Shown piece by piece: positions 4,096 to 4,200 of a DNA stretch of 5,772 nucleotides. The stretch is from Escherichia coli (GTDB lineage: Bacteria > Pseudomonadota > Gammaproteobacteria > Enterobacterales > Enterobacteriaceae), in NCBI RefSeq assembly GCF_050320075.1, contig NZ_CP190025.1; one strand, 5' to 3'. Made by a program: the position numbers and the translations under genes. Below the pieces are notes generated by a model that worked only from the letters and a program-made list of their open reading frames with translations, was not told where the DNA came from and searched no databases. Position 1 is the stretch's first letter. Every line of letters begins with the position of its first letter.

Positions 4096-4164
4096 TTTTG
4101 TTGATCGTTTCCCCCACCATTTGTTGAATTGAGAGGGGTTTTGAAAAAAGATCAAAGGATCCTC

Positions 4165-4193
4165 TTGAGATCCTTTTTTTCTGCGCGTAATCT
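4165..4193 (+). promoter_or_regulatory. RNAII (replication primer) promoter: -35 TTGAGA (4165..4170), 17-bp spacer, -10 TAATCT (4188..4193)
   Basis: Sequence matches the recalled pMB1/ColE1 RNAII promoter, with RNAII start near 4201. Confidence 0.8.
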
Positions 4194-4200
4194 GCTGCCT

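Follow-up and report, generated by a model that had tools for sequence, protein, structure and literature searches.

A tRNA-like gene at the junction of cargo and ColE1 backbone

The stretch examined here, bases 4096–4200 of an Escherichia coli contig (NZ_CP190025.1), lies between a gene annotated as a tRNA and the promoter of RNAII, the replication primer. The whole stretch of DNA that was analysed, hereafter the window, is 5,772 bases long and represents a complete circular ColE1-type plasmid. It corresponds to NZ_CP047007.1 (plasmid p0 of E. coli J-8) rotated by 2,178 bases, with a single mismatch, and the mbeA frame (517 codons) crosses the window ends. An Rfam match to RNAI, RNAII hexamers and a leader homologous to those of ColE1, and the presence of rop and the mbe genes identify the replicon as ColE1-type. 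Base composition divides the plasmid in two, with a GC content of 0.51–0.62 in the backbone vs 0.27–0.37 in foreign, AT-rich DNA at about 1700–4140. This DNA carries a cargo module of 2.4 kb that encodes a membrane transporter, a 296-amino-acid synthetase-like protein and, divergent from the latter, the tRNA-like gene. In the reading that we consider likely, bases 4096–4200 are the junction of this cargo module with the ColE1 backbone, followed by the RNAII promoter, and the tRNA-like gene is the outermost cargo gene of an ordinary ColE1 slot.

The tRNA-like gene occupies positions 4007–4095 on the plus strand and includes an encoded CCA end. It was called tRNA-Lys(CUU) by ARAGORN, and scored 46.2 bits with the Rfam tRNA model and 93.5 bits with a model of its own family (R1). 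Immediately upstream, the sequence contains a candidate promoter at 3971–3999 (+), consisting of TTGGAT, a 17-nt spacer and TATTGT, with a predicted start at about 4006–4007. This promoter is plausible but weak; it falls below the threshold of our scan and is conserved in two sister plasmids, M15 plasmid C (approximately 93% identical) and VL46.

Downstream, and on the same strand, the RNAII primer promoter lies at 4165–4193, with a −35 box (TTGAGA, 4165–4170), a 17-nt spacer and a −10 box (TAATCT, 4188–4193), which we take to be the RNAII hexamers as established for ColE1 and pBR322. In our alignment this promoter and the leader are identical to those of ColE1, and the promoter is known to be highly conserved across the family, where it is termed P2 (PMC5935869). 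RNAI, the antisense copy-number regulator, is encoded on the minus strand at 4205–4310 (Rfam RF00106, gathering score 47; 66.6 bits, E 5e-11), and RNAII transcription should therefore start at about 4201. The tRNA 3′ end is thus followed by 69 nt to the −35 box and by about 105 nt to the RNAII start, with both genes running in the same direction, which bears out a first-pass annotation of the window that had placed the tRNA co-directionally about 100 bp upstream of the RNAII promoter. The first part of this interval, from the tRNA 3′ end to the backbone (4096–4143, +), is a lineage-specific spacer that is found in tRNA-carrying plasmids only, is covered by 16 of 1,565 blastn records, and is not conserved in the alignment of the three tRNA-plasmid lineages.

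A cargo boundary shared across ColE1-type plasmids

The same first-pass annotation had regarded the placement of cargo this close to the primer promoter as unusual. When bases 4085–4175 were used as a blastn query against the plasmids of PLSDB, 1,565 records were matched, and in all of these but 16, the tRNA carriers, the match starts at query positions 59–62, which correspond to window positions 4143–4146. Homology breaks at the same place in a megablast search, where hits begin at query position 295/296, and also in the alignment. Positions 4143–4146 therefore mark the onset of homology to ColE1-family plasmids, a family-wide boundary between cargo and backbone about 20 bp upstream of the −35 box.

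With RNAII placed on the plus strand throughout, we then looked at which genes abut this boundary in ten plasmid types. Seven of the ten have a co-directional cargo gene that stops 0–47 nt from it. In ColE1 itself (NC_001371.1), the co-directional colicin lysis gene has its stop codon 19 nt before the −35 box, while co-directional lysis genes end exactly at the boundary in a Klebsiella cloacin plasmid and in a colicin K plasmid and overlap it by 2 nt in pRHB29-C05_2. Cytosine methyltransferase genes take this position in three restriction-modification plasmids, running in the same direction as RNAII and stopping 47, 40 and 47 nt short of the boundary; the remaining three plasmids sampled have their nearest annotated gene farther off or on the other strand. 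At 48–50 nt before the boundary, the end of the tRNA-like gene is in line with the range of these cargo genes. The placement is, then, far from exceptional, and since the gene sits in an ordinary ColE1 cargo slot, its adjacency to RNAII needs no special explanation.

A close parallel is the colicin-immunity-lysis operon of ColE1, which resembles the present case in having co-directional cargo just upstream of the same −35 box, the same boundary and the same hairpin (AAAGGATC...GATCC followed by seven T residues). It differs in being an SOS-induced, protein-coding operon with a stop codon 19 nt from the −35 box, whereas here a small RNA gene lies 69 nt away, behind a 48-nt lineage-specific spacer. 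A similar situation exists in pBR322/pMB1, in which bla and an end of Tn3 lie co-directionally a few tens of base pairs upstream of the RNAII −35 box and replication is normal. However, that arrangement is engineered or derived from transposition, and bla has its own terminator hairpin further upstream.

Hairpins at the junction and transcription into RNAII

According to the first-pass annotation, only a weak hairpin with a T-run separates the tRNA 3′ end from the −35 box. The coordinates of this element (4111–4142, +) and its weakness were borne out: it comprises CCCCC (4111–4115), GGGG (4135–4138) and TTTT (4139–4142), with an interior of 19 nt between the C and G runs. With just four G-C pairs, it falls short of an intrinsic terminator as we defined it (a G+C-rich stem of at least 5 bp, a loop of 3–8 nt and a U-run). 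Its predicted fold of −8.2 kcal/mol is no better than chance, as dinucleotide-preserving shuffles gave −7.6 ± 2.3 kcal/mol (z −0.26) and 74 of 200 shuffles folded as well; the fold of the whole 4096–4200 stretch has a z of −0.71. The G-run and T-run also differ across the three tRNA-plasmid lineages, which read GGGGTTTTG, GGGGGGGGTTA and GGGGATTTTA. As our terminator scan gave no report of it either, we rejected this hairpin as a terminator candidate; it does not behave like a selected terminator.

Nor is this hairpin the only element separating the two genes. Overlooked in the first pass, a second one begins 12 bases further on and overlaps the RNAII −35 box: an inverted repeat, AAAGGATC-N7-GATCCTTT (4154–4176; N7 is CTCTTGA), which leads into a run of seven T residues (4174–4180). 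The terminator scan flagged 4154–4180 as terminator-like on both strands, with 8–9 pairs, a loop of 5–7 nt and the T7 run. Folding predictions for the plus and minus strands gave −9.2 kcal/mol (z −1.39) and −10.3 kcal/mol (z −2.17), respectively, compared with −10.8 kcal/mol (z −2.69) for the equivalent element of ColE1. Across six aligned ColE1 relatives, the element is identical save for one C/T difference in the loop, at position 4162. At this position the window has C, while ColE1 and several relatives have T; the C creates GGATCC and shortens the possible stem (−9.2 vs −10.8 kcal/mol). Other plasmids, lacking the tRNA, match 4145–4175, including position 4162, at 100% identity.

For insulating RNAII from cargo transcription, the backbone hairpin-T7 at 4154–4180 appears a more plausible candidate than the hairpin at 4111–4142. 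It is a natural candidate for this role because the same element sits downstream of the SOS-induced colicin operons in archetypal plasmids. Acting on the minus strand, it would also reinforce the RNAI terminator and protect the cargo. In the sequence of events that we envisage, the tRNA-like gene would be transcribed from its own promoter near 3971–3999, and the 3′ end of the RNA would be matured at the encoded CCA, which implies the host's ordinary tRNA 3′-processing nucleases. Polymerases that run on would be stopped mainly at the backbone hairpin-T7 and not at the chance-level CCCC/GGGG hairpin. The same backbone element lies behind the other occupants of this slot in ColE1 relatives, namely colicin/lysis operons and methyltransferase genes. 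Copy number would then probably be little affected by the adjacency of the tRNA-like gene to RNAII. Cargo that abuts the RNAII promoter is the archetypal ColE1 layout, probably insulated by the backbone hairpin. For plasmid annotation and vector design, this means that about 20 bp separate the end of the cargo slot from the −35 box, and that a near-identical, bidirectional, terminator-like element is located there.

Several points weigh against this account. The survey of the cargo slot covers ten plasmid types and is no census. The backbone hairpin is modest (8 bp with three G-C pairs, −9.2 kcal/mol, a z of only −1.39), and the C at 4162 weakens it relative to the ColE1 version (−10.8 kcal/mol). 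Its conservation could come solely from the −35 box that it contains, and a terminator that releases polymerase within the promoter spacer would still permit some promoter occlusion. Furthermore, our literature search, in which older work on ColE1 and CloDF13 is thinly covered, found no paper demonstrating termination at the 4154–4180 hairpin, and we infer the promoter, the termination points and the efficiency of the terminator alike from the sequence.

These points leave room for an alternative in which transcription from the tRNA-like promoter passes both weak hairpins and either yields a 5′-extended RNAII or occludes the RNAII promoter, linking cargo expression to copy number. The replication of ColE1 is sensitive to transcripts that run into the primer region, the two co-directional genes are only 105 nt apart, the 4111–4142 hairpin is at chance level, and the backbone hairpin is modest and, owing to C4162, weaker than that of ColE1. 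However, the geometry is equal or tighter in ColE1, other bacteriocin plasmids and the methyltransferase plasmids, so that nothing about read-through would be specific to the tRNA. In addition, a hairpin-T7 is present close to the promoter, the RNAII promoter and leader carry no lineage-specific change save the C/T at 4162, itself matched in other plasmids, and the spacer is not conserved across the three tRNA-plasmid lineages. We therefore regard such coupling as unlikely, and favour an ordinary cargo slot bounded by the backbone hairpin.

A serine-type tRNA-like gene annotated as tRNA-Lys

Turning to the gene itself, the 'Lys' call made by ARAGORN and by the NCBI annotation pipeline (PGAP) derives solely from the CUU triplet. 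The body of the RNA has a 7-bp acceptor stem (GGAGAGG/CCUCUCC), G73, a long variable arm of 6 bp and a canonical T arm. We compared it with the seven elements of the bacterial tRNA-Ser identity set given by Giege and Eriani (PMC9976931). Five of the seven are present (G73, C72, G2-C71, R4-Y69 and the large variable region). The two that are missing are C11-G24, where the window has G11.U24 and six of 11 aligned sequences have G11-C24, and G30-C40, which is C30-G40 here. No serine anticodon (NGA or GCU) was seen, the anticodon position reading CUU or being absent across the alignment. Genuine tRNA-Ser(CGA/UGA/GGA) genes in Omnitrophota, Elusimicrobia and Nitrospirae share its exact 29-nt 3′ half. 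Among 5,426 complete E. coli genomes, the gene had no blastn match on any chromosome and was found on plasmids only, in 20 genomes.

To see how the gene behaves in its relatives, we examined 17 genomic contexts of the 296-amino-acid protein family, 14 of which were found through the protein. A homologous tRNA-like gene adjoins the protein gene in 11 of the 17 contexts, or in eight of 14 when only protein-found contexts are counted. In seven contexts of Enterobacterales type, the two genes form a divergent pair with a gap of 176–193 nt (the ColE1 plasmids, Salmonella pRSE40, an Enterobacter pasteurii plasmid, Edwardsiella, a Proteobacteria metagenome-assembled genome (MAG), and loci L039 and L040). 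Three distant metagenomic contexts have both genes on one strand, with the RNA gene 21–76 nt upstream, and in a Lentisphaerae MAG the two lie 3 kb apart. A search with the family model, filters off, found no tRNA-like gene within 4–6 kb of L003, L005/6, L016–18, L041, L042 and L043. With six members lacking a nearby tRNA-like gene, the pairing is therefore frequent and not universal within 4–6 kb. In distant members, promoters of the form TTGAC(A/G)-N17/18 followed by TAATAT, TAAAAT or CAGAAT lie upstream of the tRNA-like genes; being near-consensus, they make these RNAs look independently transcribed.

The members score 71–100 bits with the family covariance model. In 11 aligned sequences, 98.3% of the cells of the acceptor, D, variable and T helices are paired, against 38–55% in slid controls, and seven pairs have changed on both sides; within the variable stem alone, four of the six pairs do so. 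The 'anticodon' arm follows a different pattern. In L039 and L040 it is a perfect hairpin of 12–13 bp with a 4–6-nt loop, the two sequences differing yet pairing fully, while in the other relatives it is variable in length and sequence, mostly an 8–11-bp hairpin with internal mismatches. Only in the ColE1-plasmid lineage is the arm short enough to be drawn as a 7-nt loop. This variation, from a 4–5-bp stem to a 13-bp hairpin, argues against decoding, and an RNA family that combines a conserved acceptor, variable and T architecture with a free-running anticodon arm is unlikely to be a decoder.

On these features, we read the gene as a serine-type tRNA-like RNA, not a lysine tRNA; a tRNA-Lys identity was rejected in view of G73 in place of A73, the long variable arm, the lack of a host homologue and the non-anticodon arms of its relatives. 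The first pass had treated the gene as an ordinary tRNA, a description that does not hold, and the tRNA-Lys annotated by NCBI in at least 19 complete E. coli genomes looks mis-assigned.

The gene might still be a working decoder, either as a true tRNA-Lys(CUU) that aids the reading of AAG or as a CUU-bearing seryl-tRNA that would insert serine at AAG by mistranslation. Both ARAGORN and PGAP call tRNA-Lys(CUU), and the three ColE1-plasmid lineages, in which CUU is unchanged, allow a 7-nt loop with U33 to be drawn, (C/U)U-CUU-GA. Moreover, as serine identity is independent of the anticodon (PMC9976931), a serine-type body with CUU could in principle accept serine. However, G73 and the long variable arm do not belong to a lysine-type body, there is no similarity to the chromosomal tRNAs of E. 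coli, and position 37 reads G, not A. Instead of an anticodon loop, the minimum-free-energy fold from ViennaRNA has a closed hairpin, GG.CUC-UCUU-GAG.CC. The homologous arm of eight other contexts departs from the canonical 5-bp stem with a 7-nt loop; it is mostly a hairpin of 8–13 bp with a loop of 4–6 nt, and cannot present an anticodon. Serine at AAG from a multicopy plasmid would also be expected to be toxic. A decoding function is thus very improbable. Least probable of all, and rejected here, is that the gene is a functionless scar, an attachment site left at a tRNA 3′ end by the integration of an island. Such a scar would agree with the AT-rich cargo, clearly foreign to the backbone, and with the frequent use of tRNA-Ser, tRNA-Leu or tRNA-Sec genes as targets by genomic islands. 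However, the window lacks an integrase and does not contain the tRNA 3′ end a second time (up to three mismatches allowed), the cargo is located 5′ of the tRNA, the divergent spacing to the synthetase-like gene is fixed at 176–193 nt in seven contexts (21–76 nt upstream in the three distant ones), and substitutions among lineages keep the base pairing.

The survey also turned up variants of the gene. The tRNA-like genes at L015 3882–3972 and L044 4887–4979 have no encoded CCA, and one of them is directly followed by a T7 run. As they lie 28 and 21 nt upstream of the synthetase-like gene, co-transcription with it is suggested. Salmonella pRSE40 (L007 6235–6337) has a second, degenerate tRNA-like copy 47 nt after the first, scoring 73.8 bits with R1, with an acceptor mismatch and an altered T loop. 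At L004 12426–12720 (−), a duplicated segment comprising the tRNA-like gene with its promoter and codons 1–19 of the synthetase-like gene lies by genes for a radical SAM/SPASM protein, an MFS transporter and an Asp/Glu racemase. A 43-amino-acid open reading frame (ORF) at this locus was considered as a peptide precursor and rejected, because it is a duplicated piece of the 5′ end of the synthetase-like gene: its first 19 residues (MSLSQLAIIEDYHSLEVSR) are shared, and the upstream DNA is near-identical from the tRNA-like promoter to the ATG.

Nitrospira MAG contigs (L027 4919–5009; L029 1230–1323; L030 1114–1204; L031 724–819) also carry serine-type tRNAs that share the 3′ half of the window RNA but have abnormal anticodon loops. 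ARAGORN calls these tRNAs 'Arg UCU' or undetermined, with 4-base 'ccct' or 2-base anticodons, and tblastn found no homologue of the 296-amino-acid protein on these short contigs. Finally, a Nomurabacteria MAG (L022 720–796) carries a 77-nt tRNA with the same T arm and acceptor 3′ half, which ARAGORN calls 'tRNA-Stop' (anticodon UUA) and which could be an ochre suppressor or a misread tRNA.

A putative mobile enzyme–RNA pair

The gene divergent from the tRNA-like gene, at 2940–3830 on the minus strand with a gap of 176 nt, encodes the 296-amino-acid synthetase-like protein. It has 56 database relatives and, among those that are named, none bears a functional name. Searches of NCBIfam, PADLOC and a PDB sequence profile returned nothing for it, and Pfam gave only a sub-threshold MptE-like match; a scan of viral contigs found no relatives. 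The AlphaFold2 model, built from a 31-sequence alignment, is of high confidence (predicted local distance difference test, pLDDT, 90.7; predicted template modelling score, pTM, 0.90) and shows a single alpha/beta domain. The predicted structure is that of a class I aminoacyl-tRNA-synthetase fold, a Rossmann-fold catalytic domain of the class I type, and its closest folds are ArgRS and CysRS, rather than the cyclodipeptide synthases. The model contains no anticodon-binding domain, nor is there room for one in the single domain. At the end of strand 1 is an (S/A)GGH motif, in which G82 and H84 are invariant and which could correspond to the HIGH-type (H/T)xGH signature. There is no clear KMSKS in the family, the C-terminal FFG(K/T)SCF being variable; further conserved features are the motif SEKNMADRFKRH and several cysteines.

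The protein has recurring neighbours, namely an STP-like or EamA transporter and an MBL-fold hydrolase. In the window, the transporter gene (1795–2928, −; PGAP coordinates) begins 11 nt downstream of the synthetase-like gene, and its product is distantly related to the serine/threonine transporter (STP) family (NCBIfam TIGR00814, E 1.4e-23, under the cut-off); its orthologues are annotated as threonine/serine transporters. The combination of a synthetase-fold protein, a transporter, usually an MBL-fold hydrolase and a serine-type tRNA-like gene was observed in the window (1795–4095) and at L004, L007, L008, L015, L019, L024, L032, L039, L040 and L044, the ColE1-plasmid version being without the MBL hydrolase. 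The module was also found on a Rep3/relaxase plasmid-like contig, whose aminoacyl-tRNA-synthetase-like protein (P0045) is source-named Cetobacterium sp.

We tentatively propose, as a possibility that falls somewhat short of being probable, that these genes constitute a mobile, self-contained enzyme/RNA pair. The target of a stand-alone enzyme of class I synthetase fold would be the CCA end of a non-decoding RNA, its own scaffold of serine-type tRNA, which it would aminoacylate or use as an aminoacyl carrier; together with the transporter and usually the MBL hydrolase, the two would make up a tRNA-dependent non-ribosomal pathway. An enzyme predicted to have no anticodon-binding domain and a scaffold with an unconstrained anticodon arm would together form a coherent picture. 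The carriers of the proposed pair would be small mobilisable plasmids of E. coli and Klebsiella, the Rep3/relaxase contig named Cetobacterium and the chromosomes of several phyla. If confirmed, the pair would represent a new type of tRNA-dependent system; enzyme and RNA might even be naturally orthogonal, which would make them of interest for tRNA and synthetic biology.

The closest described proteins are the stand-alone class I-like enzymes GluQRS/YadB, MshC, BshC, the cyclodipeptide synthases and the MetRS paralogues (PMC2922099), none of which has detectable sequence similarity to the 296-amino-acid family or, to our knowledge, a dedicated tRNA-like gene of its own; Aravind et al. (2010) mention no tRNA gene accompanying such enzymes (PMC2922099). 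The cassettes of PylRS and tRNAPyl are alike in that a dedicated RNA of tRNA type lies beside its enzyme and is moved with it as a unit, and tRNASec and the allo-tRNAs (PMC5389517) share the serine-type body, the long variable arm and G73. All of these, however, are decoders with a functional anticodon loop, whereas here the arm ranges from a 4–5-bp stem to a 13-bp hairpin. In the literature searched, where older ColE1/CloDF13 papers are thinly covered, we found no description of this protein/tRNA-like pair or of a tRNA on ColE1-like plasmids.

Other features of the plasmid

The remaining genes of the backbone are mbeA, mbeB, mbeD, mbeC and rop, together with RNAI and the RNAII region; Rop, MobC and MbeA are annotated by PGAP. 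In addition, PGAP annotates a 52-amino-acid ORF at 4332–4490 (−), inside the RNAII primer region, as a 'replication initiation protein', an ORF that is also present in ColE1 and other relatives. As ColE1 replication requires no plasmid initiator protein, this is probably an annotation artefact. Within the 176-bp region between the divergent synthetase-like and tRNA-like genes, at 3886–3920, there is a perfect 9-bp inverted repeat, ATCAATGAT ... ATCATTGAT, which the M15 lineage retains and which might serve the divergent promoters as an operator.

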